Below, piece after piece: positions 22,718-59,763 of a DNA stretch of 64,000 nt (position 1 is its first letter; each line of letters starts with the position of its first letter). A program made the position numbers and the translations under genes. The notes beneath the pieces were generated by a model, which was not told the DNA's origin, ran no database searches, and worked only from the letters and a program-made list of their open reading frames with translations. The DNA comes from Alphaproteobacteria bacterium (GTDB taxonomy: Bacteria; Pseudomonadota; Alphaproteobacteria; UBA828): the NCBI GenBank assembly GCA_965237415.1, contig CBDEFM010000002.1, forward strand, positions 256,001 through 320,000. The letters are read 5' to 3'.

Positions 22718-22836
22718 TTGCCGGCTCAGCGCGTCTGCGATAGGGTGTGACGGTGGCTCTAGGGTGCGGAGTCGATGGTCCCGCCCCAAGTAACCCCAGG
22801 ATGGAGCAAGGGCCTAACGTGGGCGACAACGGCAGC

Positions 22837-23811: not shown

Positions 23812-23849
23812 GCGTACTGCGCCGGCATGACGCTCACGAGCGGTCCGCA

Positions 23850-25757: not shown

Positions 25758-25782
25758 GGTGCCCCGGCCCTCAACCTTCTTG

Positions 25783-27774: not shown

Positions 27775-27781
27775 GGGCCCG

Positions 27782-29695: not shown

Positions 29696-29940
29696 GGCTC
29701 CCTCTCCGTGGCGGCTCACCGTTCGGCCCGTCGCGCGGCCTGATTCTCACGAGACCAGCATGACCAAACTACTACAAAGGGCAACCTCGTCAAACGACCT
29801 GTCATGCACCGCCGTCATAAGCGCGTGAGCGCGAATCGGGCCAGCCTCGTGTGCCATAATTGCACCATGCACCGCCTTGGGGAAGTCGGTTTGCCAATGT
29901 ATTCTGAGGCCCCGTCCAAGGCCTTGAGCGGGCCTAGAAA

Positions 29941-31119
29941 ATGCGAAATCTCGACGACGATCCCCCGATTATCACGCTCAGCGCAGGGCCGGTCGATGCG
30001 TACCCCGTGGTCCTGCGCGCACTCTCGCGGCCCGTCACCTACGACTTCGATCCGTCCTTCCAGCAGTTCTACGAATCGACCGTCCTCAAGACCGCCGAGT
30101 CGCTGCGCACCGCGCTGCCGCCGGTGATCCTGCAGGGCGAGCCGGTGCTGGGCCTCGAAGCCGCGGCTGCCGCCCTGATCGGCGCCGACGACGTGGTCCT
30201 GAACCTTGCGTCGGGCGAATACGGCAAGGGCTTCGGCTTCTGGGCGGCGCGCCATTGCCGGGAGCTGGTCGAGATCGAGGTGCCCTACGACGACGCCATC
30301 GATCCCGAGGCGGTCAGCGACATGCTGAAGACCCGGCCGGAAATCCGCGTTCTCTCCGTCTGCCACCACGATACGCCGTCGGGAACCGTCAACCCGGTGC
30401 ACGAGATCGGCGCCATTTGCCGCGCGCATGACGTGTTGACCATCGTGGACGCCGTCTCCTCCTTCGGCGGCATGGACGTTCATCCGGAGGATGTGAACGC
30501 TGACATATTCGTGACCAGCCCCAGCAAGTGCCTGGGCGGGAGCACGGGTCTTTGCATCGTCCACGTCAGCGAGCGCGCCTGGGCGAAAATCGACGCCAAC
30601 CCCGCCGCGCCCTCAGGCTCCGTGCTCAGCCTCAAGGACTGGCGGGACGCGTGGCGCTCGGATGTCCTCTTCCCCTTCACGCCGTCGGTATCCGAGGTCC
30701 ATGCGCTGGACGCTGCCGTGCAGAACTACCTCGACGAGGGGTCGGAGGCGGTGTGGGCGCGTCACGCGCTGACAGCACGCGCCTGCCGCGCCGGAGTCCG
30801 AGCCATGGGGCTCGACCTCTGGCCCGTGCGCGAATCCATCTGCGCCGATACGGCGACCACGGTGCGGGTGCCGGCGGGCCTGGAGGATGAGGCGATCCGG
30901 CAGGAGGCGCGCCGGCGCTACGGCGTGGTCTTCTCGGCGGGCCGGGGCTCGCTGCTCGGCAAGCTCGTGCGAATCGGCCACATGGGGCCGGTGGCGCGGC
31001 CGATCTATGCGGTTGTTGCTGTCACCGCGCTCGGCGGCGCCATTGCGGCGCTGGGCGGGCGGGCCGACGTGGGGGCGGGCGTCGAGGCGGCGCTCGCGGC
31101 GATCGACGGCGCCGGGTAG
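29941..31119 (+). CDS. ppaT: Pyridoxamine-pyruvate aminotransferase-like (class V aminotransferase)
   Basis: ITLSAGPV, GEPVLGLEAAAA, CHHDTPSGT, VDAVSSFGG, FPFTPSVSE match the recalled Mesorhizobium loti PPAT along its length. Confidence 0.82.
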   Translation: MRNLDDDPPIITLSAGPVDAYPVVLRALSRPVTYDFDPSFQQFYESTVLKTAESLRTALPPVILQGEPVLGLEAAAAALIGADDVVLNLASGEYGKGFGFWAARHCRELVEIEVPYDDAIDPEAVSDMLKTRPEIRVLSVCHHDTPSGTVNPVHEIGAICRAHDVLTIVDAVSSFGGMDVHPEDVNADIFVTSPSKCLGGSTGLCIVHVSERAWAKIDANPAAPSGSVLSLKDWRDAWRSDVLFPFTPSVSEVHALDAAVQNYLDEGSEAVWARHALTARACRAGVRAMGLDLWPVRESICADTATTVRVPAGLEDEAIRQEARRRYGVVFSAGRGSLLGKLVRIGHMGPVARPIYAVVAVTALGGAIAALGGRADVGAGVEAALAAIDGAG

Positions 31120-31134
31120 GGGATCGACGCCGGG

Positions 31135-32124
31135 TCAGAGCCCCGGAAGGACCTCACGCCCGAATACGTCAAGCTGCTCCGGCAGCTCTTCCGAGGGAAC
31201 GACGCAGAGGACGACACGGGTCGCGCCTGCGTCGAAGAGTGCCTCGATGCCGGCGCGGCAGTCCTCGGGCCGGCCGGCGACCGCGAGCCAGTCCAGCCAG
31301 TCGTCCGGCATGTCGGCTTCGATCGCCGCGGCGCCGCCGGCCTCCATCATCGCAACGAGGGCCTCGTTGGCGTCATAGACGCCGGTGATCAGCGTCGGTC
31401 CCATGGCCTCCAGATAGAACGCGATCACAGGGCGAACCTTGGCGCGGGCGGCGGCCGGGTCCTCGCTCACGCCGGCGAGGGCGTAGACCACCATCGCGAA
31501 TTCCTCGGGCAGCCCCTGCGCGCGCCGGACCCGCGCAATTCGTTCTCTGATCGTCGCAACGTAGTGCGGCCCTGCGAGCACCGAGAGGACCATGCCGTCC
31601 GCAATCTCGGCGCAAAGATCGACCGACTTCGGTCCGACTGCCGCCCCCAGCACCTTGAGGTCGGGCGCGGGGTGCGTCAGTGCGACCCGATCGTAGCCAT
31701 AGTAGGCGCCGGCCTGGGTCAGGCTCTCGCCCGCGAGCAGCCGCTTCACGTCCGTGATCGCTTCGCGCAGGGAGCTCATGACCGATTGGGGGGTGAGGTG
31801 CATTTGCGCGACCCAGGCGGGAACGCCGTGGCCGATGCCGAGCGTGAAACGGCCGGGATAGGCGTTGGCCAGCGTCGACGCCTCCATGGCGGTGACGGCC
31901 GGATGGCGCACCCGGTTGGAGACCGCGCCGATCCCCACATCGATCGCCTCGGTGGCCTGCAGCGCGATGCCGGCGCTCGCGAAGCCAGAGAGCATGAAAT
32001 AGTCCTCGGCGAACCAGAGATCGGAGAAGCCGCAACGCTCGACCTGCCGGCTCAGCCCGACGACATTGCCCGGCGCTACGTCGCCGAGGATGAAGACGCC
32101 TACAGGGCGGGAGGCGGTGGGCAT
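31135..32124 (-). CDS. LLM-class (luciferase-like) flavin/F420-dependent oxidoreductase
   Basis: GFSDLWFAED, RHPAVTAME, GRFTLGIG, AAVGPK, ADG. Confidence 0.85.
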   Translation of the reverse strand: MPTASRPVGVFILGDVAPGNVVGLSRQVERCGFSDLWFAEDYFMLSGFASAGIALQATEAIDVGIGAVSNRVRHPAVTAMEASTLANAYPGRFTLGIGHGVPAWVAQMHLTPQSVMSSLREAITDVKRLLAGESLTQAGAYYGYDRVALTHPAPDLKVLGAAVGPKSVDLCAEIADGMVLSVLAGPHYVATIRERIARVRRAQGLPEEFAMVVYALAGVSEDPAAARAKVRPVIAFYLEAMGPTLITGVYDANEALVAMMEAGGAAAIEADMPDDWLDWLAVAGRPEDCRAGIEALFDAGATRVVLCVVPSEELPEQLDVFGREVLPGL

Positions 32125-32136
32125 CGGCGTCGTTCC

Positions 32137-33459
32137 TTACCAGTTCATGTAGGCCTGGACGGCCTCGTCGGGGACCAGACCCGCCGCGACGTCGCCGAGG
32201 GCCTTGTCGATAATTGCGAGGCCTTCCTCGCATTCCGCATCGCTCAGGACGAGCGGCGGCGTGATCTCCAGAACGTTCGCCGCGAGCCCCACATAGATGA
32301 AGCTCGCGCCGAGCTCGTAGGCGCGCACGATCACCTTGGCCGTCGTGGTCGCCGGGACCGGCGCGCGGCTCTTGCGGTCCGTCACCAGATCGACCCCGAT
32401 CGCGAGGCCGCGGCCGCGCACGTCGCCGATCATCTCGTGCCGCTCGGCGAGCTGCCTGAGGCCCTCCATCAGCGCCCCGCCCAGCTGCGCGGCTCGGCTC
32501 GGGAGATCCGCGTCGAGCACGGTGCGGAGCACGGCGAGCCCGGCGGCGGTGCAGACCGGATTGCCGCCCGTGGTCTGGATCGCGAAGGCGGGGCGATGGT
32601 CCATGATCGCCGCCGGCCCGATCAGCGCAGACAGCGGTAGCCCGCCGCCGAGCCCCTTCCCGAGAACGACCATGTCGGGCTCCAGCCCTTCGTGGCTGAA
32701 GGCATGGAGCGCGCCGCTGCGCCCGAGGCCCACCTTGACCTCGTCGAGGACGGTGAGGATGCCGTGCCTCCGGCAGCGTTCCTCCAGCGCCTTGAGGAAG
32801 CCTGCGGGCGGCACGATCAAGCCGCCGTCCGACATGATCGGCTCGATGAAGACCGCCGCTACCTGCTCCGGCGGGCAGGTCGTCTCGAACTGGTAGTCGA
32901 GCATGTCGAGCACGGCCTCGGGCGAAAACCGCGGCCGGTAGGGGTCGGGATAGGGCAGCAGCAACAGGCCGGGTCGGGGCAACGTGTGGGTCATCGCCGT
33001 GTGGCCCGAGATGCTAATCGAGCCCGCCACGCCGCCGTGGTAGGAGCCGATGAAGGAGATGAAGCGGGGGCGGCCGGTCGCGGCCTCCAGCACGCGGGCG
33101 GCAGCATCGTTGGCGTCGGAGCCCGAGTGGCCGTACCAGACGCGTCGCTCGGCGTCTCCCGGCATCGTCTCCAGCAGCGCCTCGGCGAGGGCCGCCGCCG
33201 GCTCGTTCGGATACATGAGCAGGCTCGCGCCCGCCATGTCGGCCATCGCCTTGGTCACGGCCTCGGTCACGGCGGGATGGCCATAGCCGAGGCTTGCCGC
33301 CGTCGCCGAGGCGGAGAGGTCGAGGATGGCGCGGCCGTCGTCGGCCGTGAGGTACGATCCGCGCCCACCGCGTGCGGCGAGCGGGTTGAAGCGCAGCTTC
33401 TGGATGCCAGCGATCGCGGCGTCGTCACGCTCGCCAAGCGTCGCGTTCGAGGTCGCCAT
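32137..33459 (-). CDS. Alpha-amino-epsilon-caprolactam racemase-like PLP enzyme (class III fold)
   Basis: QKLRF.PL, WYGHSGSDAN, EPIMSDGG, DEVKVG, LGKGLGGGLP and terminal Trp, as in the recalled Achromobacter obae ACL racemase. Confidence 0.78.
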   Translation of the reverse strand: MATSNATLGERDDAAIAGIQKLRFNPLAARGGRGSYLTADDGRAILDLSASATAASLGYGHPAVTEAVTKAMADMAGASLLMYPNEPAAALAEALLETMPGDAERRVWYGHSGSDANDAAARVLEAATGRPRFISFIGSYHGGVAGSISISGHTAMTHTLPRPGLLLLPYPDPYRPRFSPEAVLDMLDYQFETTCPPEQVAAVFIEPIMSDGGLIVPPAGFLKALEERCRRHGILTVLDEVKVGLGRSGALHAFSHEGLEPDMVVLGKGLGGGLPLSALIGPAAIMDHRPAFAIQTTGGNPVCTAAGLAVLRTVLDADLPSRAAQLGGALMEGLRQLAERHEMIGDVRGRGLAIGVDLVTDRKSRAPVPATTTAKVIVRAYELGASFIYVGLAANVLEITPPLVLSDAECEEGLAIIDKALGDVAAGLVPDEAVQAYMNW

Positions 33460-33526
33460 GCCGTTGCCTCCGTCGTTGCCGCCGCCGCCATGCGCCTCAT
33501 GGCGATCGCCGACGGTGGACAGCCGA

Positions 33527-34252
33527 TCACGTCATATGAGGCGCTAGTGCCTCCCGCAGCACCGGCGCGACCGCATCGATCCCGGGCGTGTCGGAATGAA
33601 TGCACACCGTCTCGACACGGATCGGGATATCGATGCCGTCCACCGATGTCACCGTGCCCTCCTCGATCGCGCGGAGCGTGCGCTTGGCGGCAGCCGCCGG
33701 GTCGTAGGGCTCGTGCTCACGCGTGATGATGAGGTTGCAGTCCCGGTCGTATTCCAGATCGGCATAGAACTCGGGCCACCAGGGCAGGCCGCACCGCGAG
33801 TAGACGGTGTCGTGCATGGTGCCGGCCTGGCCGATCAGCGGCACGCCGAAGACCTCCGCGGCATCGGCCGCCGCCTCGGCGCAGTGTTCGTACTTCGAGG
33901 TCATGCCGAAGAGCGCGCCGTGGGGCTTGATGTGGTTGAGGGGCGCGCCGGCCGCTTCCAGGAAGCCCTTGAGCGCGCCGACCTGGTAGATCAGGAGATC
34001 GCGCAGTTCCTCGCGCTCCATCTGCATCTCGCGGCGGCCGAAGCCCTGGCGGTCGGGGAGCGACGGGTGCGCGCCGACCTTCACGCCGTGCGCCAGCGCG
34101 AGGCGGACGGTCGCGTGCATGACCGACGGGTCCGACGCATGAAAGCCGCAGGCGACATTGGCGATGCTGATGAAGGGCATGATCCGCTCATCGTTGCCGA
34201 AGGTGTAGAGGCCGTACCCTTCGCCGATGTCGCAGTTGATGGTGATCGCCAT
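33527..34252 (-). CDS. pxpA: 5-oxoprolinase subunit A (LamB/YcsF)
   Basis: NCDIGEG, ANVACGFHA, GAHPS, HIKPHGAL, CIHSDTP. Confidence 0.9.
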   Translation of the reverse strand: MAITINCDIGEGYGLYTFGNDERIMPFISIANVACGFHASDPSVMHATVRLALAHGVKVGAHPSLPDRQGFGRREMQMEREELRDLLIYQVGALKGFLEAAGAPLNHIKPHGALFGMTSKYEHCAEAAADAAEVFGVPLIGQAGTMHDTVYSRCGLPWWPEFYADLEYDRDCNLIITREHEPYDPAAAAKRTLRAIEEGTVTSVDGIDIPIRVETVCIHSDTPGIDAVAPVLREALAPHMT

Positions 34253-34317
34253 GGCTCGCTCCCCGCTCCCCGGTGGCGTGAAACACTGCACGGGCGGCAC
34301 CGGCCAGTCAAAGCGGT

Positions 34318-34497
34318 TCAGACGTCCCGCGTGGTGATTGGGTTGACGATGTTGAGGCGGGTGATGAAGCGCTGGAAGACGAGGGCCAGAACCAGCGGCG
34401 GCACGATCGAGAGCGTGCTGGCCGCGGCAAAGAGAACCATGGGCGTGGCCCCTATGGAGCCGAGCGGCGAGATCGCGAGCAGAGCCGGCGAGAGGGG
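34318..34497 (-). pseudogene. C-terminal remnant of a carbohydrate ABC permease (MalG-like)
   Basis: Reads PLSPALLAI...MVLFAAASTLSIVPPLVLALVFQRFITRL...stop; N-terminal part missing; not in the ORF track. Confidence 0.65.
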
Positions 34498-35433
34498 GAA
34501 GTTCGCCTCAAGATCGAGGCGTTCGGCCTCAACCGAGGGGAGATCATGTTCCGGGCTGGCGCATATGTTGCGTCACCCAAGTTCCCGTCTCGCATCGGAC
34601 TTGAGGCGAGCGGCGTGATCGATGCAGTCGGGCCAGGCGTGACGGACTTCGCGATTGGCGACCGCGCCACCACCGTGCCCTACCTCTCCTGGGACAAATG
34701 GGGCAACTGGACGCCCGAGTCGGCTATCAAGTACGGCGTCTATGGCGAGAGCGCGGTGGTGCCGGCATTTTGCGTCGCCCGCAGCCCGGAGGGGATTTCA
34801 GCCGTAGAGCGCGGGGCGATCTGGAGCCAGTACGCGACCGCCTGGGGCGGGCTCGTGGATTGCGCCGGCGTATCGTCCGACGACATCGTGCTGGTCACGG
34901 CGGCGAGCAACAGCGCCGCGCTCGGCGGGTTGCAGATCGCGAAGAACGCCGGCGCCATGGTCATCGCTGCGACACGCAGGTCGGACAAGGCGGAATTCTT
35001 GCGGGGCGCCGGCGCCGATCACGTCATTGTCATCGAGGAGGAGGACCTCGAGTCCCGTGTGAAGGAGATCACCGGCGGCCAGGGTTTCACCATCGCCTAC
35101 GATCCCGTGGGCGGCGCCTTCATCGGCGACCTCGTCGCGGCGGCGCAGCCCTGCGGCCTCATCGTCAGCTACGGCAACCTCCGCACCGAGCCCATCGACA
35201 TCCCCATCCTGCCGATGCTGGCGAAGCGACTCGCCATCAAGTTCCACAGCGTGTTCGACACGGTTCGGCTGCCCGAAAAGCGCGCCGCCTGCTTTGCCTT
35301 CGTGCACGATCAGGTGGCCGCCGTAGAGCTGAAGGTGATCGTCGACCGGACCTTCCCCCTCGAGCAGGTCGTGGACGCGCACCGCTACATGGAATCCAAC
35401 GTGCAGCGGGGGAAGATCGTCGTCACGACCTGA
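34498..35433 (+). pseudogene. MDR/quinone oxidoreductase (Qor-like), 5'-truncated
   Basis: In-frame EVRLKIEAFGLNRGEI precedes the ATG at 34546, but the first ~25-30 residues are missing; YDPVGG, AHRYMESN..GKIVV. Confidence 0.7.
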
Positions 35434-35530
35434 CGCGCGCCGGACGTCACGCCTTCCAGGCTGGACGCCGTTGGTACGCCCGTAGCGGCGGGATAGACTG
35501 CCGCCAGCGGATGGGGCGGGGAGGCGACAC

Positions 35531-36925
35531 ATGGGCGACGGTTTCATTCATCCTTACGTGCCGAATGCGGCACCTGCGCCGAGACGGAAGCTGCTGGAGG
35601 CGATCGGCGCCGGCGACGTGACCGATCTCTATGCCGCAATCCCGGAGGTGCTCAAGGTCAAGGGATTGCTCGACTTGCCGCCGGCGCTTCCCGGCGAGCA
35701 GGACCTGCGACGGCACCTCGAGGAGATCGTTGCCCGCAACCAGCCCTGCACAGGGACCTGGCTCAACTTTTGCGGCGCCGGCTGCGCGCAGCATTACGTG
35801 CCGGCGATCGTGGACGAGATCGTCCATCGCGGCGAGCTGCTCACCGCCTACGGCGGCGGCACCTATTCCGACCACGGCAAGAACCAGGCGCTCTTCGAGT
35901 TTCAAAGCCTGATGGGCGAGCTGGTGGGGATGGAGGTGGTCTCGACCCCCACCTACGACGCCGGTGCGGCGACCGGCAGCGCCGCGACGATGGCCTGCCG
36001 CATCACCGGCCGGCGCGGTGTCCTCGTGCCGGAGACCATGAGCGCCGACCGGCGCTCGCAGCTGCAGGGCTTCACCAAGCCGTTCGCGACGGTGGAGACC
36101 GTTGCCCGCGATCCCGAGACCGGGTGCACCGACCTCGCCGACCTACGCGCCAAGGTCTCGGGCGAGACCGCCGCAGTGGTGATCGAGAGCCCCGGCTATC
36201 TCGGCCTCATCGAGACCGAGGCGGCGACCATCGCCGACATCGCCCATGACGCCGGCGCCATTCTGATCGCGGGCGTCGACCCGATCTCCCTCGGCGTGCT
36301 GGCAACGCCCGCCGACTATGGCGCCGACCTTGTCGTCGGCGATCTGCAGCCGCTCGGCATTCACATGTATGCCGGCGGCGGCAACGGCGGCTTCATCGCG
36401 AGCCGGGACGAGGCGCGCTTCGTCGCGGAATATCCTTCCATCCTCTTCAGCATCGCGCCGGCGGCGGAGGGCGAGGGCTTCGGCTTCGCCTGGTCCACCA
36501 TGGAGCGCACCTCCTACGACACCCGCCACGATGCCACCGATTACACCGGCACGACCCAGTGGATCTGGGGCATCGGGGCTGCGGTCTATCTCTCGCTCAT
36601 GGGGCCCGAAGGCATGGCCGAGCTCGGCCGCGGCATCATGCAGCGCGCCTGCTACGCGGCGGAGCGGATCGCAGCGCTCCCCGGCGTCTCGGTGCCGCAT
36701 CTGGAGCAACCATTCTTCAAGGAGTTCGTCGTCGATTTCTCCGGCACCGGCACGACGGTCGCGTCCATCAATGCGGCGCTGCGCGAAGCAGAGATTCACG
36801 GCGGCAAGGATTTGAGCGGCGAGTTCCCGGCGCTCGGACAGTCGGCCCTCTACTGCGTGACCGAGCTGCACGGAGCGGCCGAGATCGACAGACTGGTCTC
36901 TGCGCTCGGGGAGGCAATCCGATGA
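35531..36925 (+). CDS. gcvPA: Glycine decarboxylase P-protein subunit alpha-like
   Basis: HPYVPN, FCGAGCAQHYVP, RGELLTAY, QALFEFQS, VVGDLQPLG, FFKEFVV. Confidence 0.85.
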   Translation: MGDGFIHPYVPNAAPAPRRKLLEAIGAGDVTDLYAAIPEVLKVKGLLDLPPALPGEQDLRRHLEEIVARNQPCTGTWLNFCGAGCAQHYVPAIVDEIVHRGELLTAYGGGTYSDHGKNQALFEFQSLMGELVGMEVVSTPTYDAGAATGSAATMACRITGRRGVLVPETMSADRRSQLQGFTKPFATVETVARDPETGCTDLADLRAKVSGETAAVVIESPGYLGLIETEAATIADIAHDAGAILIAGVDPISLGVLATPADYGADLVVGDLQPLGIHMYAGGGNGGFIASRDEARFVAEYPSILFSIAPAAEGEGFGFAWSTMERTSYDTRHDATDYTGTTQWIWGIGAAVYLSLMGPEGMAELGRGIMQRACYAAERIAALPGVSVPHLEQPFFKEFVVDFSGTGTTVASINAALREAEIHGGKDLSGEFPALGQSALYCVTELHGAAEIDRLVSALGEAIR

Positions 36926-38523
36926 GCGAGCGCACGGGAAGCGGCTTCCACGCCGCACGCTGGGACGAGCCCCTGATCGACGAGATCGGCGGAGAAGGCG
37001 GGCGCGGCCTGCTGCCGCCGGCGGTGGACGACGCGATCGTCGAGGCCGTTGGCGACGTCGTCGCAGCGCTGCCCGAGGGGGTAGGGCGGGCCGCGCCGCC
37101 GGCATTGCCCGCACTGCCGCAGCACCGCGTGCTCCGGCACTTCCTCAGGCTCTCGCAGATGTCCATGGGCTTCGATGTGACCGCCGACATGATGGGCACC
37201 TGCACCATGAAATACAGTCCCAAGGTGCACGAATACGTCGCGCGCATGCCGGGCTTCGCCGATGTCCACCCCTTGCAGGACCCGGAGACGCTGCAGGGCA
37301 CGCTGGAGATCCTCTACCGCTTCAACCGCATGATGTGCCAGGTCGCGGGCATGGACGCGTTCACCTTCCAGCCGGCGAGCGGGGCGCAGGGCATCTACAC
37401 CAATGCGTGCCTGATCCGCGCCTATCACGCCTCGCGCGGCGAGGGTGGGCAGCGCGACGAGATCATCACCACCGCCTTCTCGCACCCGGCCGACGCGGCG
37501 ACTCCGGCGGTGGCCGGATTCAAGGTCATCACCCTCATGCCGGGGGAGATGGGCTTCGCCGAGGTCGATGCGCTCAAGGCCGCAGTGTCGGAACGCACCG
37601 CCGGCCTGATGCTGACGAACCCCGAGGACACCGGGCTGTACAACCCGAACATCCGCGAGTTCGTGGACATCGTGCACGAGGCCGGCGGGCTTTGCGCCTA
37701 CGACCAGGCCAACGGCAACCCGCTGCTGGGCATCGTCCGCGCCGGCGATACCGGCTTCGACATGTGCCAGTTCAACCTTCACAAGACCTTCTCCGCGCCC
37801 CACGGGGCCATCGGCTTGGGCTGCGCTGCGGTCGGCGTCAAGGCACATCTGGAGCGCTTCCTGCCGCGCCCGATCGTGACCTGGGACGGCGAGCGCTACG
37901 GCCTCGACCACGATCCGGGGGAGGGGATCGAGAAGATCCGCGCCTTCATCGGCAACGTGCACGCGGTGCTGAAGGCCTATGCCTGGGTGCGCAGCCTCGG
38001 CGCCGAGGGCCTGCGCGCCGTCGCCGAGACCTCGGTGCTCAACAACAACTACATGCTGCACCGCATCAGGCAAATCGAGGGCACGTCGATCCCCTGGCCC
38101 AAGAACACCTATCCCAAGCTGGAACAGGTCCGCTACAGCTGGGAGCCGCTCTATGAAGAGACAGGCGTCGCCAGCCACGATGTGATGAACCGCATGGTCG
38201 ATTTCGGCGTGCAGCACTACATGGAGAGCCATGTGCCGATGCTGGTGCCGCAGCCCTTCACCCTGGAGCCGGGCGAATCCCTCACCATCGAGGAGATGGA
38301 TCACGTGCTCGACGCGCTGCGCCGCATCGCCGAGGAGGCCCGCACCGCGCCGGAGCATGTGAAGGCGGCTCCCCACTGCGCCGCTACCCAGGCCGTCGAC
38401 GGCGACGTGGCAGAAGATCCCGACTGCTGGGCCTTCACGGGGCGTGCCTATCGGCGCAAGCGGGGGAATTGGGCCAACGTCAAGCGCGGCCTGGGCGATC
38501 ACGGGGGCGGCGGTTACGGCTGA
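36922..38523 (+). CDS. gcvPB: Glycine decarboxylase P-protein subunit beta-like
   Basis: GTCTMKYSPK, HPLQ, QPASGAQG, MLTNPEDTG, YDQAN, FNLHKTFSAPHG (PLP Lys), NNNY. Confidence 0.87.
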   Translation: MSERTGSGFHAARWDEPLIDEIGGEGGRGLLPPAVDDAIVEAVGDVVAALPEGVGRAAPPALPALPQHRVLRHFLRLSQMSMGFDVTADMMGTCTMKYSPKVHEYVARMPGFADVHPLQDPETLQGTLEILYRFNRMMCQVAGMDAFTFQPASGAQGIYTNACLIRAYHASRGEGGQRDEIITTAFSHPADAATPAVAGFKVITLMPGEMGFAEVDALKAAVSERTAGLMLTNPEDTGLYNPNIREFVDIVHEAGGLCAYDQANGNPLLGIVRAGDTGFDMCQFNLHKTFSAPHGAIGLGCAAVGVKAHLERFLPRPIVTWDGERYGLDHDPGEGIEKIRAFIGNVHAVLKAYAWVRSLGAEGLRAVAETSVLNNNYMLHRIRQIEGTSIPWPKNTYPKLEQVRYSWEPLYEETGVASHDVMNRMVDFGVQHYMESHVPMLVPQPFTLEPGESLTIEEMDHVLDALRRIAEEARTAPEHVKAAPHCAATQAVDGDVAEDPDCWAFTGRAYRRKRGNWANVKRGLGDHGGGGYG

Positions 38524-38533
38524 TCGGCCTACC

Positions 38534-39661
38534 TTGGGCCGGCCTACGCTCGGCCTCATCGTCAACCCCATCGCCGGCATGGGCGGGAGCGTCGGGCTCA
38601 AGGGCACGGACACGGCGGCGATCCTGAGCGAAGCCCGCGCCCGCGGCGCGGAACCGCAGTCGGGACGGCGAGCGAGAGTGGTGCTCAATGCGCTCGCCAG
38701 TGCGCGACCCGGCCTGGAGCTTCTCTGCGCCCCCGGTGAGATGGGCGAGCGGATCGCCCGAGACGCGGGCCTTTGCCCGATCGTCGTCGGCGTTCCGGCC
38801 GAGGGCGAGACCGGCGCGGCGGACACGCGCGCCGCGGCTGAGGCCATGGCGGTCGCCGGTGCGCGGCTCATCCTCTTCGCCGGCGGCGACGGCACCGCGC
38901 GCGACATGGCGGCCGCTCTCGATGACCGCGACCGGGTGCCGGTGATCGGCGTGCCGGCAGGCGTGAAGATGCACTCGGCGGTCTACGCCACCAGCCCGCG
39001 CGCCGCCGCCGACCTCGCGCTGCGCGCGTTGACCCAGGATATCGAGGCGCGGCCGCGGGAGGTCATGGATATCGACGAGGAGGCCTTTCGTGCCGGCGCC
39101 GTCTCGGCTAGGCTTTATGGGTATATGCCAGTGCCTTATTCCCCCGACCTCACCCAGAACATGAAGGCGGGCGGGGTGAGCGGCGACCGCGAAGCGCTCT
39201 GCGGTATCGCCGCCGAGGTCGCCGGCCGGATGGAGGCGGGGCGGCTCTACATCCTAGGGCCGGGCACCACCACGCGGGCGGTCACCGAAGCGCTCGGCCT
39301 GCCAAAGACCCTGCTCGGCGTCGACCTGGTGCGGGACGGGGCGTTGGTGGCTGCCGACGCGAGCGAAGACGATATCATTCGCGCGCTGGCTGATGGCCGA
39401 CCCGGCGCAATCGTCGTCACCCCCATCGGCGGCCAGGGGCACTTCCTCGGGCGCGGCAACCAGCAGATCGGGGCACGCGTGGTGCGGGCGGTGGGCCTCG
39501 ACCGGCTCCTTGTCGCCGCGACGCCGGAGAAGCTCGCGTCCTTGCGCGACGGCACCCTTCATGTCGATACCGGCGATCCCGCGCTCGACCGTGCGCTCGC
39601 CGGCTGGCGCCGCGTGATCACCGGCTTCGGCGGCGAGGCGGTGTGCCGGGTAGCGGCATGA
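38534..39661 (+). CDS. ATP-NAD kinase-like / AcoX-like protein
   Basis: GLIVNPIAGMGG.VGLKGTD, FAGGDGTARD, GVPAGVKMHS, GPGTT, IGGQG..LGRGNQQ; start uncertain. Confidence 0.82.
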   Translation: MGRPTLGLIVNPIAGMGGSVGLKGTDTAAILSEARARGAEPQSGRRARVVLNALASARPGLELLCAPGEMGERIARDAGLCPIVVGVPAEGETGAADTRAAAEAMAVAGARLILFAGGDGTARDMAAALDDRDRVPVIGVPAGVKMHSAVYATSPRAAADLALRALTQDIEARPREVMDIDEEAFRAGAVSARLYGYMPVPYSPDLTQNMKAGGVSGDREALCGIAAEVAGRMEAGRLYILGPGTTTRAVTEALGLPKTLLGVDLVRDGALVAADASEDDIIRALADGRPGAIVVTPIGGQGHFLGRGNQQIGARVVRAVGLDRLLVAATPEKLASLRDGTLHVDTGDPALDRALAGWRRVITGFGGEAVCRVAA

Positions 39662-39761
39662 GCAGCGACAGCAGAGGCTCTGCCCCGCCTCTATCCCTTG
39701 AGCCGCGGCGGGCCTTTCCGCAGGATTGCGCCGCCGCGCCTGCCGGCGCGCGGGAGGGGAT

Positions 39762-40772
39762 ATGACGACGCTATCCTGGGGCGTGCTCGGCGCCTCGCTC
39801 TTCGCCATCGAGCACATGATACCGGCGCTGCAACAGGCCGCCGGGGTCCGCGTCCACGGCATCGCGAGCCGTGAGCTGGCCAAGGCCGAGGCGGTGGCCC
39901 AGCGCTTCGGCTTGGCCCAGGCCTACGGCGACTACGACTCCCTGCTCGCCGACCCCGCGATCGACGTGGTCTACAACCCACTGCCCAACCATCTCCATGT
40001 CCCTTGGACGGTGAAGGCGGCGCGCGCCGGTAAGCACGTGCTGTGCGAAAAGCCGATCGCGCTCGACGCCGCCGAGGCCGCCAGCCTGATCTCCCTTCGC
40101 GACGAGACCGGCCTGCAGATTCAGGAGGCCTACGTCGTGCTGCACCACCCGCAGTGGCAGCGGGTGAGGGCGCTCGTGCGTGAGGGCCGCATCGGCCGGG
40201 TGCGGGCGATTCAGGGCTGGTTCAGCTACCGGCTGGAAGACCCCGACAACATCCGCAACAAGCGGGAGATGGGCGGCGGCGGGCTGCTCGACATCGGTGT
40301 CTATCCGCTGCTCACCGCGCGCTACGTCTTCGGCGCCGAGCCAGTGCGGGTCTTCGCCGCCATCGAGCGGCACCCCACATGGGACGTGGACATACTGACC
40401 AGCGCGGTGCTGGCCTTCCCCGACGGCATCCTGAACTTCACCTGCAGCACGCTGCTTGCCGGCCACCAATTCATGGCTGTCCACGGCGACGAAGGGCGGA
40501 TCGAGCTGCCCGATCCCTTTGCCCAGTCGCCGAGCCGCGAGGCCCGAATTGCGATCCACGGTTCGGGCGAGATCTGGGAGCCCTTCGACGCGGAGGTCGA
40601 GACGCTGGCGAAGGTCAATCAGTACGTGCCGCAGGCCGAGGCGTTCTGCACGGCCGTGCGGGGCGAGGCGCCGCCGGCCTTCCCGCTGGAGGAGTCGATC
40701 AAGATGCTGCGCATCCTCGACGCGCTCGCGCGTTCGGGCGAGAGCGGCCGGTGGGAGAAAGTCGGCGCCTGA
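39762..40772 (+). CDS. Gfo/Idh/MocA oxidoreductase
   Basis: VYNPLPNHLH, HVLCEKP, GGGLLDIGVYP. Confidence 0.9.
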   Translation: MTTLSWGVLGASLFAIEHMIPALQQAAGVRVHGIASRELAKAEAVAQRFGLAQAYGDYDSLLADPAIDVVYNPLPNHLHVPWTVKAARAGKHVLCEKPIALDAAEAASLISLRDETGLQIQEAYVVLHHPQWQRVRALVREGRIGRVRAIQGWFSYRLEDPDNIRNKREMGGGGLLDIGVYPLLTARYVFGAEPVRVFAAIERHPTWDVDILTSAVLAFPDGILNFTCSTLLAGHQFMAVHGDEGRIELPDPFAQSPSREARIAIHGSGEIWEPFDAEVETLAKVNQYVPQAEAFCTAVRGEAPPAFPLEESIKMLRILDALARSGESGRWEKVGA

Positions 40773-40840
40773 GCACCGGATGTTACGGGCTGCGCGCGCT
40801 GCTATAACTGGCCGGATCAGGCCGGGGCGGGGACGGGGAC

Positions 40841-42823
40841 ATGACGACGGCACCGACAGAGGCGCTGAAGCTTTACGGCACTGAGCAGGAGGCGCCGGCG
40901 GCGCGGACGCTCCGCGCCGGCGCGCTTTCGGCCGAGCTTGAGGCCGGCAAGCTGCGCTGGATCCGCTATGGGGGCACGGAAGCGCTGCGCGGGCTCGCCT
41001 TCGTCGTGCGCGGCTCGGGCTGGGCGACCTACGCGCCCGAGATCGCCAACCTGGAGATCGAGGAGGGAGACGGACGCTTCCGCGTGGGCTACGACGCGCG
41101 CATCGAATCCGGCGACGGCGTGCTCGCCTTCCGCGCCGACATCGTGGCGGAGAGCGAGCGGAGCCTGGTTTTCACGGTCGAGTTTCGCCCCGAAACCGAG
41201 TTCAGGACCAACCGCACGGGCTTCGTCGCGCTGCACGCGATCGAGGGGGTGGCGGGGGAAGCCTGCACCGTCACCCACAGCGACGGCACGGTGGAGGAGA
41301 CCGAATTCCCCGGCCTGATCATGCCGCTGCAACCCTTCTTCGATATCTCCGCCATGCGCCACCAGGTCTCGCCGGGCGTCTGGCCCACCTGCCGCTTCGA
41401 GGGCGCCGACCCCTGGGAGACCGAGGATCAGCGCAACTGGACCGACGCGTCCTACAAGACCTATTACCGCCCGCTGGCGCTGCCCTATCCCTACCCGCTC
41501 GCGGCCGGGGAGACGCTGCGCCAGACCGCGACGCTCACCATCGAGGGGGGCTCTGCGGTCGTCGCAACGGCGGCCGGCGGCGATGACGGGGCGGTCGAGA
41601 TCGCCGTTGGCGGTGAGACCGGGCAGCATATGCCGGAGATCGGGCTCGGCGTCGCCGCCTCGGAACGCGACCGCCTCGACCACGGGCTCGACCTGCTCCG
41701 GGCGCTCGGGCCCGGCCACCTCGTTTGCGAATGCGACCCGCGGGACGACCGTTCGGTCGAGACGCTGGCCGCGTGTCGCGAGCTTGCCCAGGCGCTCGAC
41801 GCCGAGGCCGTGCTGGAGATCGTCGTGCCTTGCGAGCGGCCGGTGGCGGACGAGCTTGCGACGGCGGCCGAGATCGCGGGCCGGGCCCGGCTCTTGCCCG
41901 CCGCCGTCGTGCCCGAGCAGGCCCGCCTCCTGAAGTTCACCCTGGAGAAGATCCCGGCCCTCGGCATCCCCGACTTCGACGAGGTCTACGGCGCAGCGCG
42001 GGCGGCATTCCCCGGCGTGCGCCTGGGCGGCGGCGTCTTCACCAACTTCACCGAGCTCAACCGCAACTGCGCGGTGCCGGAGCTCTTCGACTTCCTGACG
42101 CATGCCACCTGTGCCGTGGTGCACGAGCCGGACGACCGCTCGGTGATGGAGACGCTGCAGACGCTGCCCGACATCGTCGCCTCGGCCAAGGCGTGGGCCG
42201 GCGGGAAGCCTTACCGGATCGCGCCGAGCGCCATCGGCATGCGCTTCAACCCCTACGGGCCGGATGTCCACCACAACAGCGACAACGGGCGCTACTCCTT
42301 CAGCCGCCAGGACCCGCGCCATCGCGCGCTTCTCGGTGCCGCCTTCACGCTCGGCTATGCCGCGCGGGTGGCGCCGCTCGGGGTCGAGGCGCTGGCCCTG
42401 GGCGCGCCCTCCGGTGCGCTCGGCATGGTCTACCGCAGGACCGGGCACCCGCAGCCCTGGCTCGACGATTTGGAAGGGCCGGCGGTGTTGCCGCTCTACC
42501 ACATCGTGTCGGCGCTGGCGGCGGCGAAAGGGGCGGCAATCCGCAGCGTGACGAGCGGCGATGCCACGCGCGTCCTCGGACTCGCCTACGAGAGCGACAG
42601 CGGGACGCTGCTGTGGCTCGCCAACCTCTCGCCGGAGACGCAGGCCGTGACGGTCTCGGGCATCGACGGGGGAACGGCGACCATCGGCCGGCTGGACTCG
42701 GGCAATTTCGTGGAGGCAGTGACGGACCCGGCCGGCTTCGCCGCAGCCCCAGGCCAGCCGGGCGACCCCGGCCGCCTTGAGCTCGCGCCGTTCGCGGTCG
42801 CGCGTATCGAAATCGCCGCCTAG
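40841..42823 (+). CDS. D-apionate lactonase (ApnL)-like protein
   Basis: 660 aa; TNRTGFVALH, ETEDQRNWTDASYKTY.RPL, FTELNR, VHEPDDRSVMETL, DPRHR. Confidence 0.72.
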   Translation: MTTAPTEALKLYGTEQEAPAARTLRAGALSAELEAGKLRWIRYGGTEALRGLAFVVRGSGWATYAPEIANLEIEEGDGRFRVGYDARIESGDGVLAFRADIVAESERSLVFTVEFRPETEFRTNRTGFVALHAIEGVAGEACTVTHSDGTVEETEFPGLIMPLQPFFDISAMRHQVSPGVWPTCRFEGADPWETEDQRNWTDASYKTYYRPLALPYPYPLAAGETLRQTATLTIEGGSAVVATAAGGDDGAVEIAVGGETGQHMPEIGLGVAASERDRLDHGLDLLRALGPGHLVCECDPRDDRSVETLAACRELAQALDAEAVLEIVVPCERPVADELATAAEIAGRARLLPAAVVPEQARLLKFTLEKIPALGIPDFDEVYGAARAAFPGVRLGGGVFTNFTELNRNCAVPELFDFLTHATCAVVHEPDDRSVMETLQTLPDIVASAKAWAGGKPYRIAPSAIGMRFNPYGPDVHHNSDNGRYSFSRQDPRHRALLGAAFTLGYAARVAPLGVEALALGAPSGALGMVYRRTGHPQPWLDDLEGPAVLPLYHIVSALAAAKGAAIRSVTSGDATRVLGLAYESDSGTLLWLANLSPETQAVTVSGIDGGTATIGRLDSGNFVEAVTDPAGFAAAPGQPGDPGRLELAPFAVARIEIAA

Positions 42824-42863
42824 CCAATACAGCATTCCAACGGATCGAAAAGGATTAGCGGAC

Positions 42864-43664
42864 ATGACAGAACACGCCCTCAAGGAGATGTCCCGCCACG
42901 GCCGGCTCAAGGTCGGCACCTTTGTGGTCGAGTTCAGCACGCCGGGGATCGGCCAGCTTCTGAAGGCCGCCGGCTGCGAATTCGTGCTGCTCGACATGGA
43001 GCATTCCGGCTTCGGCTTCGACACGGTGAAGCAGATGCTGCGCTACATGCAGGCGGGCGACATGCCGGCGATCGTCCGCGTGCCGTCGCGCGAGTATCAC
43101 CACGCGGCGCGTGCCATGGACATGGGGGCCGAGGGCATCATGCTGCCGATGGTGGGCTCAGCGGCGGCCGCGCGGGAGCTGCTCAGCTATGTGAAATACG
43201 CGCCGGACGGCGAGCGCGGCGTTGCGCTGCAAATCGCGCACGATCGCTACGCACCCGGCCCCGTGCAGAAGAAGCTCCGCGACGCCAACGAGCGCTGCAC
43301 CTTCGTCGCTCTGATCGAGACCGCCGAGGGCGTCGAGAACGCCGAGGAGATCGCGGCGATCGAGGATGTCGACATCCTCTGGATCGGCCACTTCGACCTC
43401 TCGGTCTCCATGGGCATCGCCGGCCAGTTCGACCATCCCGACTTCAAGGCGGCGGTGGCGCGTGTTGTGCGCGCCGCGAAGAAGCACAACAAGTCGCTTG
43501 GCCGGCTGGTGCCGAACGTGGATGTGGGTGTGGCGCTCTTCAAGGAGGGCTTCGACTTCATCTGCTATTCGGGCGATGTCTGGCTGCTGCAGCAGGCGAT
43601 GCGCGAGGGCGCCGAGGGCTTACGCGCCCAATGCAAGCGCGGTCGGCGGCGGGCAAAAAAATAG
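42864..43664 (+). CDS. HpcH/HpaI class II pyruvate aldolase family
   Basis: LDMEHS, IVRVP, GAEGIMLPMV, Y.P.GERG, LIET, LWIGHFDLS. Confidence 0.88.
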   Translation: MTEHALKEMSRHGRLKVGTFVVEFSTPGIGQLLKAAGCEFVLLDMEHSGFGFDTVKQMLRYMQAGDMPAIVRVPSREYHHAARAMDMGAEGIMLPMVGSAAAARELLSYVKYAPDGERGVALQIAHDRYAPGPVQKKLRDANERCTFVALIETAEGVENAEEIAAIEDVDILWIGHFDLSVSMGIAGQFDHPDFKAAVARVVRAAKKHNKSLGRLVPNVDVGVALFKEGFDFICYSGDVWLLQQAMREGAEGLRAQCKRGRRRAKK

Positions 43665-43680
43665 GGGAGTTCAACAGGTT

Positions 43681-44733
43681 ATGGCCGATAAATTCAGAGT
43701 CGCTCTGAGCAGAGATTTCTTGACGGCGGAGGGCGAGCCGCTCTTCCCCATGTTCGACCGCACGCCGCTGGACGAGGACCCCGACATCGAGTGGCACTAT
43801 CTGGAGAACGGTGACGGACCGGTGGACGCGGCGGAGCTCGCGGGCCACGACGCGCTCGTCCTGCTCGCCCAGCGCTTCGACCGCTCCAGCGTGCCGGACG
43901 ACGGCAGGCTCGCCATGGTCGCGCGCTTCGGCGTCGGCTACGACAGCGTGGACGTGCCGGCCTGCTCCGACAACGGCATCGCGCTTGTGATCACGCCCAA
44001 CGGCGTGCGCCGGCCGGTGGCGGTCGCCATCATCGCGCTGATCCTCGCCGTCATGGGCAAGCTGCTGCTCAAGGATCAGCTCACGCGCGAGGGCCCGCCC
44101 GGCTTCGCCCGCAAGGGGGCCCACATGGGGGTCGGCCTCGTCGGCAAGACGCTGGGCTCCGTCGGCATCGGCAATATCGGGGCCGAGATGTTCCGCCTGG
44201 CCGCCCCCTTCGACATGAACTTCATGGCCTGCGACCCCTATGCCGACCCGGCGGTGGCGGCGGAGCTTGGCGTGCAGATGGTCGATCTCGACACGCTCTG
44301 CCGGGAGTCGGACATCCTGGCCGTCAACTGCCCGCTGAGCGACGCGACCCACCATATCGTCGATGCGCGCCTCATCGCCTCCATGAAGCCGACGGCCTAT
44401 CTGGTGAACACCTCGCGCGGCGGCACGGTCGACCAGAAGGCGCTGACCGCGGCACTGCAGGAGGGGCGGATCGCGGGCGCCGGTCTCGACGTGCTCGACC
44501 CCGAGCCGCCGGAGCCGGACGATCCCATCCTCGAGCTCGACAACGTGGTGTTCGCGCCCCACGCGCTGGCTTGGACCGACCAGTGCTTCGCCGGCCTCGG
44601 CGCGGACGACATCGTCGCCTGCATGGCGTTGATGCGGGGCGAGGAGCCGCAAGGCATCGTCAACGGCGATATCAGGGAGAACGAGGCGTGGCGCGCCAAG
44701 CTCGCGCGCTACGGCCAGACCTTCGGCCGCTGA
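43681..44733 (+). CDS. D-isomer-specific 2-hydroxyacid dehydrogenase
   Basis: RFGVGYD, GIGNIG, VNTSRG, AGLDV..PEP, APH. Confidence 0.9.
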   Translation: MADKFRVALSRDFLTAEGEPLFPMFDRTPLDEDPDIEWHYLENGDGPVDAAELAGHDALVLLAQRFDRSSVPDDGRLAMVARFGVGYDSVDVPACSDNGIALVITPNGVRRPVAVAIIALILAVMGKLLLKDQLTREGPPGFARKGAHMGVGLVGKTLGSVGIGNIGAEMFRLAAPFDMNFMACDPYADPAVAAELGVQMVDLDTLCRESDILAVNCPLSDATHHIVDARLIASMKPTAYLVNTSRGGTVDQKALTAALQEGRIAGAGLDVLDPEPPEPDDPILELDNVVFAPHALAWTDQCFAGLGADDIVACMALMRGEEPQGIVNGDIRENEAWRAKLARYGQTFGR

Positions 44734-44944
44734 TCGATTGCCGTTAGAACCGGATGCCGCTGGCCGCTACTGCCCGGCCCGCTCGACGCTTCGGACAATG
44801 GTGCGGTCCACGGCGCTGGCCGCCCGCGGCAACCTCGCGCCATGAAGCGCAAGCACGAGCAGGCCACATCATACGCAGGCACGATGAGCGGGCGCTCATC
44901 GGCAAGTCGGCTGACGCCGGCAGTCCGCGCCATCGCGGCCGCCT

Positions 44945-44988
44945 ATCCCGCGGAATCCCACTTATCCCACTTAATCCCGGCGAATCCC
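44945..44988. repeat. Five ATCCC (GGGAT) pentamers in helical phase
   Basis: ATCCC starts at 44945, 44955, 44964, 44974, 44984 (spacing 10, 9, 10, 10) in an intergenic region. Confidence 0.7.
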
Positions 44989-45070
44989 GCTTTCATTTAA
45001 AGTGTGGGCGCATCCCGCGGGGCGCGGGCCAGGCCACGACCCCGGTGAAATAGGGGGCTACCCGCGCACC

Positions 45071-46234
45071 GTGACAGGATTCGACTTCCCGCCGCCCGAA
45101 ATGCCGCAAGGCGTGGACGCGCTGCGTGCCGAGGTCCGCGCCTTCGTCGCCGATTCGCGAGCCGCAGAGGGCTGGCGGCCGGATTCCGACTTCGGCTCGG
45201 ACTGGTCGGCCTCCTTCAGCCGTGCCCTCGGCGCGCGTGGCTGGATCGGCATGACCTGGCCCACGCGCTACGGCGGGCACGAGCGCTCGGCGCTCGAGCG
45301 CTACGTCGTGATCGAGGAGCTGTTGACGGCGGGCGCGCCGGTCTACGCGCACTGGGTCGCGGACCGGCAGAGCGGCCCGCTGCTGCTGCGCTTCGGCAGC
45401 GAGGAGCAGCGCCAGACAATCCTCCCCAGGATCGCCGCCGGCGAATGCTACTTCGCCATCGGCATGAGCGAGCCCGATTCCGGCTCCGACCTCGCCTCGG
45501 TGCGCACCCGCGCGGTGCGGACGAACGATGGCTGGCGCATCGACGGCACCAAGGTGTGGACCAGCAACGCCCATCGTTCTCACTACATGATCGCCCTTTG
45601 CCGCACGGGCCCGGCGGGCGAGGACCGACACGCGGGGCTCAGCCAGTTTCTGATCGACCTCGAAAGCGACGGCGTGCAGGTCAACCCCATCGTCAACCTC
45701 GCCGGCAAGCACGACTTCAACGAGTGCGTCTTCGAGGATGTCCTCATTCCCGCCGACCGCCTGATCGGGCAGGAGGGCGATGGCTGGCGTCAGGTCACGG
45801 GCGAGCTCGCGCTGGAGCGGAGCGGGCCCGAGCGCATCCTCAGCACCTTCCATCTCTTCGCCGCGCTGGTCGAGGCGGCGGGCCCTGAGCCCGAGCCGCG
45901 GCTTGCCGAGGCGATCGGGCGCCTCGCGGCAGAGCTCTACGCGCTGCGCGCCATGTCGCTCGCCGTCGCCGGGCAGCTGGAGAAAGGGGAGTTCCCGGAG
46001 ATCGAGGCGGCCATTGTCAAGGACATGGGCACCCGCTTCGAGTTTGAGGTCGCCGAGACGCTGCGCCGTGCCGCGCCGGTCGAGCCGGTCTCCGGCAATG
46101 ATGGCGATGCCAACGCGCCGTCTCTCGCGTCTGCGCTGGGCGCCTCGGTGCTGGGGTTGCCGTCGTTCACCCTGCGTGGCGGCACCAACGAAATCCTGCG
46201 CTCGATCATCGCCCGCGGCCTCGAGGTCAGGTGA
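45071..46234 (+). CDS. Acyl-CoA dehydrogenase (catalytic-type subunit)
   Basis: GMSEPDSGSDLAS, GTKVWTS, FNECVF, LALERSG, GGTNEILR. Confidence 0.9.
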   Translation: MTGFDFPPPEMPQGVDALRAEVRAFVADSRAAEGWRPDSDFGSDWSASFSRALGARGWIGMTWPTRYGGHERSALERYVVIEELLTAGAPVYAHWVADRQSGPLLLRFGSEEQRQTILPRIAAGECYFAIGMSEPDSGSDLASVRTRAVRTNDGWRIDGTKVWTSNAHRSHYMIALCRTGPAGEDRHAGLSQFLIDLESDGVQVNPIVNLAGKHDFNECVFEDVLIPADRLIGQEGDGWRQVTGELALERSGPERILSTFHLFAALVEAAGPEPEPRLAEAIGRLAAELYALRAMSLAVAGQLEKGEFPEIEAAIVKDMGTRFEFEVAETLRRAAPVEPVSGNDGDANAPSLASALGASVLGLPSFTLRGGTNEILRSIIARGLEVR

Positions 46235-46241
46235 GGGGCCT

Positions 46242-48049: not shown

Positions 48050-48055
48050 AGGCGG

Positions 48056-49045: not shown

Positions 49046-49064
49046 GCCGCTCTCGGCAAAGTGG

Positions 49065-59738: not shown

Positions 59739-59763
59739 CCTGTTGCGTGGGGAGGCGTCGAAG

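Follow-up and report, generated by a model that had tools for sequence, protein, structure and literature searches.

The window analysed here, a stretch of 64,000 nucleotides from an alphaproteobacterial genome (contig CBDEFM010000002.1, positions 256,001 to 320,000 of the forward strand), carries three consecutive genes on its plus strand that we refer to as the triad. The first two encode proteins resembling the subunits of split glycine decarboxylase, the P-protein of the glycine cleavage system. PA (35531–36925, +; 464 aa), recognized with Pfam and NCBIfam, corresponds to the alpha subunit GcvPA, and PB (36922–38523, +; 533 aa), assigned with NCBIfam and by tree reconstruction, to the beta subunit GcvPB that binds pyridoxal phosphate (PLP); both belong to a sister family of the canonical proteins. 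The third gene (38534–39661, +; 375 aa, TTG start) is of the COG3199 type, is labelled 'ATP-NAD kinase family protein' and is called here the kinase-fold gene. A preliminary description of the locus had reported a P-protein pair tightly trailed by a kinase-like gene, and this is what we find: the ATG of PB overlaps the stop codon of PA as ATGA, and 10 nt separate the stop codon of PB from the start of the kinase-fold gene. An RNA-library contig of a related strain has ATG at 38534, where the window has TTG. The PA/PB and PB/kinase junctions are both spanned by metatranscriptome contigs from two studies that match the window at 95–99% identity. These contigs are compatible with co-transcription of the triad, with the reserve that DNA carry-over may occur and that such contigs are no proof of a single transcript. 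The segment 34561–34947 had zero RNA-contig cover in all four runs. A promoter and terminator scan of 33400–49200 returned 0 promoters and 0 terminators, a result that is uninformative in DNA of 68% GC.

PA matched the Pfam family GDC-P (164.2 bits), and the sole Pfam match of PB was a weak one to GcvP2_C (32.7 bits). With the NCBIfam models, PA scored 422.3 bits for GcvPA (NF001696, cut-off 364) and PB 511.6 bits for GcvPB (NF003346, cut-off 441). The best solved relative of PB is 1wyt_B (E = 2e-86), and the split P-protein of Thermus thermophilus (GcvPA/GcvPB, EC 1.4.4.2; 1WYT) has the same two-gene alpha/beta layout, fold family and PLP residues as the window pair. PA is 27–34% identical to 18 canonical split PAs.

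The assembly consists of two contigs with a total of 4.75 Mb. Canonical gcvT, gcvH and a fused, full-length gcvP lie together at C2:2446127–2450641, about 2.15 Mb from the window. The sole GCV_H match of the genome (C2:2447268) adjoins this gcvT and the fused gcvP, and the four matches of the lipoamide-dehydrogenase (lpd) type all lie outside the window. No association with gcvH or gcvT was found within 28001–48000 of the window, so the absence of gcvH, gcvT and lpd near the P pair, first noticed in the preliminary description, is confirmed. The search for a separate canonical gcvTHP set that it had proposed was positive, and the window pair is therefore a second copy. Compared with the fused GcvP of the same genome, PA shows 25% identity (to its N-terminal half) and PB 30%. 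We rejected the window pair as the main glycine decarboxylase of the genome because of this separate gcvT–gcvH–gcvP set and of the 25–30% identity. One open reading frame (ORF) of the window, 812 aa long and located 20 kb away at 59656–62094 (+), does contain a GCV_T domain; it appears to be of the dimethylglycine/sarcosine-dehydrogenase type and is not gcvT. About ten long GCV_T-domain ORFs of this appearance are present in the genome.

The comparison set comprised 80 loci that surround relatives of the kinase-fold gene, taken from contigs of one genome per species, and PB sequences obtained in whole-genome searches with the GcvPB model (our locus and genome numbers, L and G, are given where needed). 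In a tree of 70 PB rows, 19 canonical sequences separated from 51 sister sequences, with a support of 99 for each group in the Shimodaira–Hasegawa-like approximate likelihood ratio test (SH-aLRT). When four fused P-proteins were included as outgroup (79 rows), 53 sister rows formed one side of a branch with SH-aLRT 100, and a careful tree of 40 of those 79 rows supported the sister branch at 100/100. The GcvP phylogeny suggested in the preliminary description thus places PB in a sister clade, apart from both the canonical split and the fused P-proteins. In 61 clostridial genomes, bit scores with the GcvPB model fell into two ranges, 718–827.5 for canonical PBs and 551.5–576.6 for the three sister copies, with nothing in the gap. 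Sister PBs are also about 30–45 residues longer than the canonical PBs of Clostridia.

Canonical and sister copies coexist in several genomes. Four of them (G001, G003, G004 and G005) each encode a canonical PB, 34–42% identical to the window PB and without a kinase gene beside it, and additionally one to three sister PBs elsewhere, 50–55% identical to the window PB. Both kinds are also found in G366, G371, G374 and G375. Genomes holding both range from Clostridia to Asgard archaea, the canonical copy lying by gcvH and the sister copy by the kinase-like gene. Among five further genomes with a triad, one had no GcvH, and one had GcvH and no canonical P-protein. Among 301 sampled genomes of the phylum to which the window belongs, sister-type PBs were restricted to the window genome and to one other (G342; 50% identity, the next best match in the sample being at 41%), and there PB is flanked by PA and the kinase gene.

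The residues expected to hold the cofactor are retained. His287 and Lys288 of PB align with the HK pair of 1wyt_B and are invariant in 29 sister PBs; the lysine codon (37783–37785, +) confirms the PLP lysine recognized in the preliminary description. Asp261, the pyridine-nitrogen aspartate, and His188, the stacking histidine, are also kept, with no or almost no variation across the sister family. By contrast with the canonical split P-protein, the alpha active-site and loop motifs and several beta motifs have changed. In 18 canonical PAs, the columns of YTP-QPEISQG and of EQHIRREKATSNIC are 83–100% conserved. At the same columns, 47 sister PAs show YAGEPYSDHG and a poorly conserved ERTSY..R......TGT, and the window PA has YGGGTYSDHG and TRHDATDYTGT (36521–36553, +), so that the canonical alpha motifs are absent. 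In the second of these loops only R332, G340 and T341 reach a conservation of at least 85% among the 47 sister PAs. In PB, the canonical PDSAHGTNPAS is replaced by TT.FSHP.DAAT, CMHEFV by RLEQVR and HPPTVYFP by HYWTSHHP. The preliminary description had quoted two deviating motifs, the TRHDATDYTGT segment of PA and the HGAIGLG loop that follows the HK lysine in PB (37801–37821, +), and both are present. HGAIGLG indeed departs from the HGGGGPG loop, which is 100% conserved in 19 canonical PBs, but it is no hallmark of the sister family as a whole: the consensus of that family, HG[CA][GI]G[PL][AG] (49–100% per column), keeps more glycines, and HGAIGLG is therefore a lineage variant. The PLP core of the sister family is intact and the motifs lining the canonical active site and its entrance have been rewritten. 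Judged by residue numbering, the active-site residues and the mobile loop of human GLDC probably correspond to the rewritten sister motifs. In a homology and docking model of human GLDC, the active site is described as formed by tyrosines of the N-terminal half and a threonine and a tryptophan of the C-terminal half, and a mobile loop (residues 360–384) as the modelled interface with the H-protein (PMC7259800).

The P-like pair is adjacent to the kinase-fold gene in 48 of the 80 loci, and in 32 of the 51 for which at least 3.3 kb were available on both sides. Gene order in the 48 triad loci is PA–PB–kinase in 40 and kinase–PA–PB in six, the remaining two having the genes on opposite strands. 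These loci come from at least 12 phyla, three of them archaeal (Bathyarchaeota, Heimdallarchaeota and Thorarchaeota). Linkage is also seen from the other side, since five of six sister PBs found independently of the kinase gene have it as a neighbour (the second copy of G001, L093, L115, L116 and L122); the exception is the third copy in G005 (L096), with no adjacent kinase-fold gene. The co-occurrence of the three genes, which the preliminary description had singled out for verification, therefore extends across Bacteria and Archaea. Using the GcvH and GcvT of the window's own genome as queries, we found gcvH or gcvT in none of the 80 kinase loci, with flanks of up to 8 kb. For contrast, canonical loci inspected with flanks of only 1.5 kb contained gcvH in ten cases and gcvT in one more.

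A fortuitous juxtaposition, in this genome, of three genes that form no functional unit would accord with the great differences in flanking genes between lineages and with the promoter and terminator scan, which found no operon-delimiting pattern. We consider it hardly credible given the ATGA overlap and the 10 nt gap, the adjacency in 48 loci of at least 12 bacterial and archaeal phyla, and the RNA-library contigs that bridge both junctions. PA and PB form an old, widespread paralogous family, encoded away from gcvH and gcvT and mostly beside a COG3199 kinase-fold gene. The triad belongs to this widespread sister family of glycine decarboxylase and is probably not a spare glycine-cleavage enzyme.

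The kinase-fold protein matches the Pfam families NAD_kinase (69.3 bits), NAD_kinase_C (48 bits) and DAGK_cat, and no NCBIfam family, the NAD-kinase models included. Its GGDGT nucleotide-binding/catalytic motif (38882–38896, +) is invariant in 29 diverse family members, as are about 47 other columns. The family comprises 771 cluster representatives at E ≤ 1e-30, uniformly of about 370–380 aa, with labels such as 'ATP-NAD kinase family protein' and a COG3199 tag on one member. A model of the whole protein reached a predicted local distance difference test score (pLDDT) of 90.3. Residues 1–213 of this model superimposed on the diacylglycerol (DAG) kinase DgkB (2qvl) with Z = 11.6 and a root mean square deviation (rmsd) of 2.6 over 129 residues, and on the NAD kinase (NADK) 7qvs with Z = 11.2 and an rmsd of 3.0 over 137 residues. 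The protein thus shares GGDGT, the N-domain fold and the Pfam NAD_kinase and DAGK_cat matches with NAD and DAG kinases (DgkB, YegS, SphK), but appears to differ from them in the C-terminal half of its 375 residues. Modelled alone, the 171 C-terminal residues gave a pLDDT of 91.5, and their best fold matches, all with Z ≤ 7.8, were eIF2B subunits, ribose-5-phosphate isomerase, the DeoR-C and SorC effector domains and NagB. The likeness of this modelled domain to such sugar-phosphate binders may reflect only a common arrangement. A Foldseek search of the PDB with the whole model gave weak matches of the N-domain only (template modelling score ≤ 0.28), a PDB sequence search returned nothing meaningful, and the ESM Atlas returned only the family's own names.

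Searched against its own genome at 1e-3, the window protein found no paralogue. We discarded it as the housekeeping NAD kinase: the genome contains another NAD_kinase_C match, a 281-aa frame that is likely the housekeeping enzyme, and a search of five other genomes with the family profile did not detect nadK at E ≤ 1e-3. The same data bear on whether the kinase-fold protein could be a true NAD(H) kinase that supplies NADP(H) to adjacent dehydrogenases, or a non-catalytic regulatory or structural subunit modulating the PLP enzyme. Such a role would suit the matches to both Pfam NAD_kinase domains, an N-domain that resembles NADK as closely as DAG kinase, and the dehydrogenases that recur nearby (short-chain dehydrogenases/reductases or SDRs, zinc-dependent alcohol dehydrogenases, GFO and luciferase-like monooxygenase-type or LLM enzymes). 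We nevertheless find it improbable, in view of the 281-aa frame, the failure of the profile to reach nadK, the lack of any NCBIfam NAD-kinase match and the absence of NADK from the 50 fold matches listed for the modelled C-domain. The many invariant polar residues outside the nucleotide motif argue in the same direction, as they suggest a specific second substrate.

Downstream of the triad, four genes occupy 39726–44733 (+) and form a putative sugar-acid-type catabolic set, kept together with the triad in L005 and L009. The first encodes a GFO/IDH/MocA dehydrogenase recognized with Pfam (39726–40772, +), which also follows the kinase gene in L005 (80% identical) and L009 (71%). The second encodes a 660-aa ApnL-like protein (40841–42823, +) related to the D-apionate lactonase family; it scores 553.8 bits with NF049900, below the cut-off of 750, has no Pfam match, gave nothing meaningful in a PDB sequence search, and is conserved in L005, L009 and L007. 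The third (42777–43664, +) encodes an HpcH/HpaI-type aldolase (PF03328, 112.6 bits) conserved in L005 and L009, whose best NCBIfam matches, HpaI and GarL aldolases, are both below cut-off. The fourth gene encodes a D-2-hydroxyacid dehydrogenase. Upstream of the triad and on the opposite strand lie genes for a class III aminotransferase, an LLM oxidoreductase and PxpA. Of the 293 neighbour ORFs of the 48 triad loci we scanned 150 with Pfam, corresponding to the first 26 triad loci, and found SDRs in seven of these loci, amino-acid or peptide transport components in six, LLM oxidoreductases in five, M20 deacylases in four and class III aminotransferases in two. Clustering of the ORFs from the 80 kinase loci placed SDRs in 26 of them. 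M20 and ArgE-type deacylases, amino-acid/peptide transporters, and acyl-CoA synthetases or CoA-transferases are the other recurrent neighbours elsewhere.

These observations lead us to propose that the substrate of the sister enzyme is not glycine but another amino compound, or that the enzyme at least operates outside the relay of H, T and L proteins, which we infer to be likely. An alpha2beta2 enzyme would bind a non-glycine alpha-amino compound as a PLP aldimine and would decarboxylate it, or perform related chemistry at the alpha carbon, with no handover of an aminomethyl group to H, T or L proteins. A weaker step of this scheme is that the kinase-fold protein would be an active ATP-dependent kinase whose target is a hydroxyl group on either this substrate or the resulting product. 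The triad would then be a portable cassette, combining phosphorylation with a PLP step, that serves in different catabolic operons. Here and in the closest relatives, the genes joined to it encode a sugar dehydrogenase, a protein resembling lactonases, an aldolase of the 2-keto-3-deoxy-acid type and a 2-hydroxyacid dehydrogenase. These four adjoining genes suggest a hydroxylated, sugar-acid-like amino acid as substrate. That the kinase phosphorylates a hydroxyl of the very molecule handled by the PLP enzyme, and that the cassette is used for hydroxylated amino acids, in this genome perhaps an amino sugar acid, is a tentative proposal that we rate as rather doubtful. Equally speculative is its general form, in which the triad would be a kinase-primed PLP module distributed from Asgard archaea to Proteobacteria, with a P-protein-like enzyme that decarboxylates, or eliminates on, a phosphorylated hydroxylated amino acid without H, T and L. 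Should this hold, the substrate in the present genome would probably be a 2-amino sugar acid formed through the dehydrogenase and the lactonase-like enzyme encoded next to the triad.

Several findings weigh against this interpretation. PA and PB pass the NCBI equivalog cut-offs for GcvPA and GcvPB and have an intact PLP core, so that glycine may yet be the substrate. The score gap seen in Clostridia is not universal, with a sister copy at 614 bits in Bathyarchaeota and a canonical copy at 649 in Heimdallarchaeota; we abandoned the bit score, which fails in Archaea, as a discriminator and defined the family by trees. A 1.9-Mb metagenome-assembled genome (MAG), G372, has a sister PB and GcvH, and a canonical PB was not found there, which would fit the use of an H-protein. 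The resemblance of the kinase C-domain to sugar-phosphate-binding folds is weak (best Z 7.8), and Foldseek found nothing in the PDB at E ≤ 0.001 with the model of this domain. Neighbourhoods differ too much between lineages for a single substrate to be evident. Finally, 19 of the 51 kinase loci with full flanks lack the P-like pair, and the kinase family occurs in 17 of the 301 genomes of the window's phylum, 15 of them without a sister PB.

The first and third of these points, together with the conserved PLP lysine, Asp261 and His188 and the presence of GcvH, GcvT and four lpd-type genes in the genome, would be expected if the pair were a redundant or condition-specific glycine decarboxylase that relies on distant GcvH, GcvT and Lpd, with a functionally unrelated kinase-like neighbour. 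We regard this as unlikely. The pair belongs to a separate clade in which alpha columns 83–100% conserved in canonical proteins have been replaced, gcvH and gcvT are missing from all 80 loci, and many genomes also keep a canonical copy beside gcvH. In addition, G373 (a MAG) contains the sister pair and no GcvH match was found in it, and the kinase gene is linked to the pair across phyla and in both domains.

In the tree of the kinase family, loci without the pair are interspersed with paired ones and belong mostly to a Tissierellia group and a gammaproteobacterial group. One Tissierellia genome with a pair-less kinase locus has a full triad elsewhere, and two gammaproteobacterial genomes carrying the kinase family have a fused GcvP only. 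The solitary gene occurs in two recurrent gammaproteobacterial contexts (L132, L135, L136, L145, L137–L139 and L142–L144). In one it lies between epmC, which encodes the hydroxylase of elongation factor P (EF-P), and yfcL (four loci; yfcL alone in a fifth), and in the other beside a pdxB-like erythronate-4-phosphate dehydrogenase gene (six loci). Such housekeeping-type contexts are a further point in favour of the NAD kinase or subunit alternative discussed above. On a plasmid of Peptoclostridium acidaminophilum (L127, 8998–11074), the kinase gene overlaps by 8 nt a gene for a 328-aa PLP protein of the class I/II aminotransferase fold. The preliminary description had treated the kinase-like protein as an accessory of the P pair, a view contradicted by the 15 of 17 carriers without that pair. 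Its solitary and aminotransferase-linked occurrence indicates that the kinase-fold protein has a role of its own, often beside a PLP enzyme. In a Dehalococcoidia locus (L080, 5054–9119), two genes precede the kinase gene, one of the class V aminotransferase fold and one a 522-aa ORF without Pfam match; they may be an even more diverged counterpart of PA and PB.

Kinase and PLP-enzyme pairs acting on phosphorylated hydroxy-amino compounds are known: threonine kinase with the threonine-phosphate decarboxylase CobD, D-glucosaminate-6-phosphate ammonia-lyase DgaE with the aldolase DgaF, and hydroxylysine kinase with its phospho-lyase. By analogy, the triad may follow the same logic of a kinase gene coupled to a gene for a fold-type-I PLP enzyme, although the protein families differ on both sides. 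The gene context offers some likeness to these pairs, in the aminotransferase-fold overlap of P. acidaminophilum and in the aldolase, lactonase-like and sugar dehydrogenase genes of the window. AcoX of the acoXABC acetoin operons likewise belongs to the COG3199, 'ATP-NAD kinase-like' proteins and is similar in size. We found no aco-type (acoABC) neighbour among the ORF clusters of the 80 kinase loci or the neighbour proteins scanned with Pfam, and a loose plasmid search for distant AcoX-type relatives (E 1e-4) returned the same 13 records as the strict search. In a 2022 paper, acoX is still described as a gene whose function is unknown (PMC10107126). New here are the frequent solitary occurrence of the kinase-fold partner, its unmatched C-terminal domain and the sugar-acid neighbourhood of the present lineage.

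The preliminary description had viewed the locus as a candidate for an undescribed system, in keeping with our literature searches, in which no paper on the sister family or on its kinase-linked triad was found. RefSeq names the pair gcvPA/gcvPB on plasmids of Rhodococcus qingshengii, Paracoccus aminophilus and Sphingomonas psychrotolerans. With this annotation, a system that probably has another function is entered as 'glycine cleavage' in metabolic reconstructions, and Bathyarchaeota, Asgard archaea and amino-acid fermenters are among the organisms affected. To our knowledge, only one reaction has been assigned to the P-protein superfamily; if the reading proposed here is correct, the sister family would provide its first non-glycine, lipoate-independent reaction. 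If a further class of substrates and a kinase-fold partner devoted to it were established, both families would become accessible to study; for AcoX, a probable relative of that partner, we know of no function assigned in decades. Culturable carriers of the kinase-fold family, identified by a plasmid search, are Rhodococcus jostii RHA1, R. qingshengii, P. aminophilus and P. acidaminophilum.

Other genes of the window were noted in passing. Immediately upstream of PA, a quinone-oxidoreductase ORF (34546–35433, +) of the medium-chain dehydrogenase/reductase (MDR)/PIG3 type starts about 45 residues into the family profile. Its frame is open upstream to before 34303 without ATG, GTG or TTG, so that the gene is either 5′-truncated or starts in an unusual way. 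In L005, the closest relative, a gene of this kind is missing between pxpA and PA. The 5-oxoprolinase genes are split, with PxpB/PxpC-type carboxyltransferase-domain genes at 17748–19633 (−), 14 kb from pxpA (33527–34300, −). Beyond the four-gene set, 45002–49045 (+) contains a putative CoA-ester set of two PimC/PimD-type acyl-CoA dehydrogenase genes (large and small subunit), an enoyl-CoA hydratase gene and a gene for a PLP enzyme of the threonine/serine-dehydratase type, the first three of which are kept in L009. A class V aminotransferase encoded at 29941–31119 (+) scores 613.6 bits against a cut-off of 600 for pyridoxamine–pyruvate transaminase, an enzyme of vitamin B6 degradation. An isoprenoid/hopanoid group extends over 22747–29719, with genes for LytB/IspH (22747–23811, +), squalene-hopene cyclase (25783–27843, −) and 1-deoxy-D-xylulose 5-phosphate (DXP) synthase (27782–29719, −).

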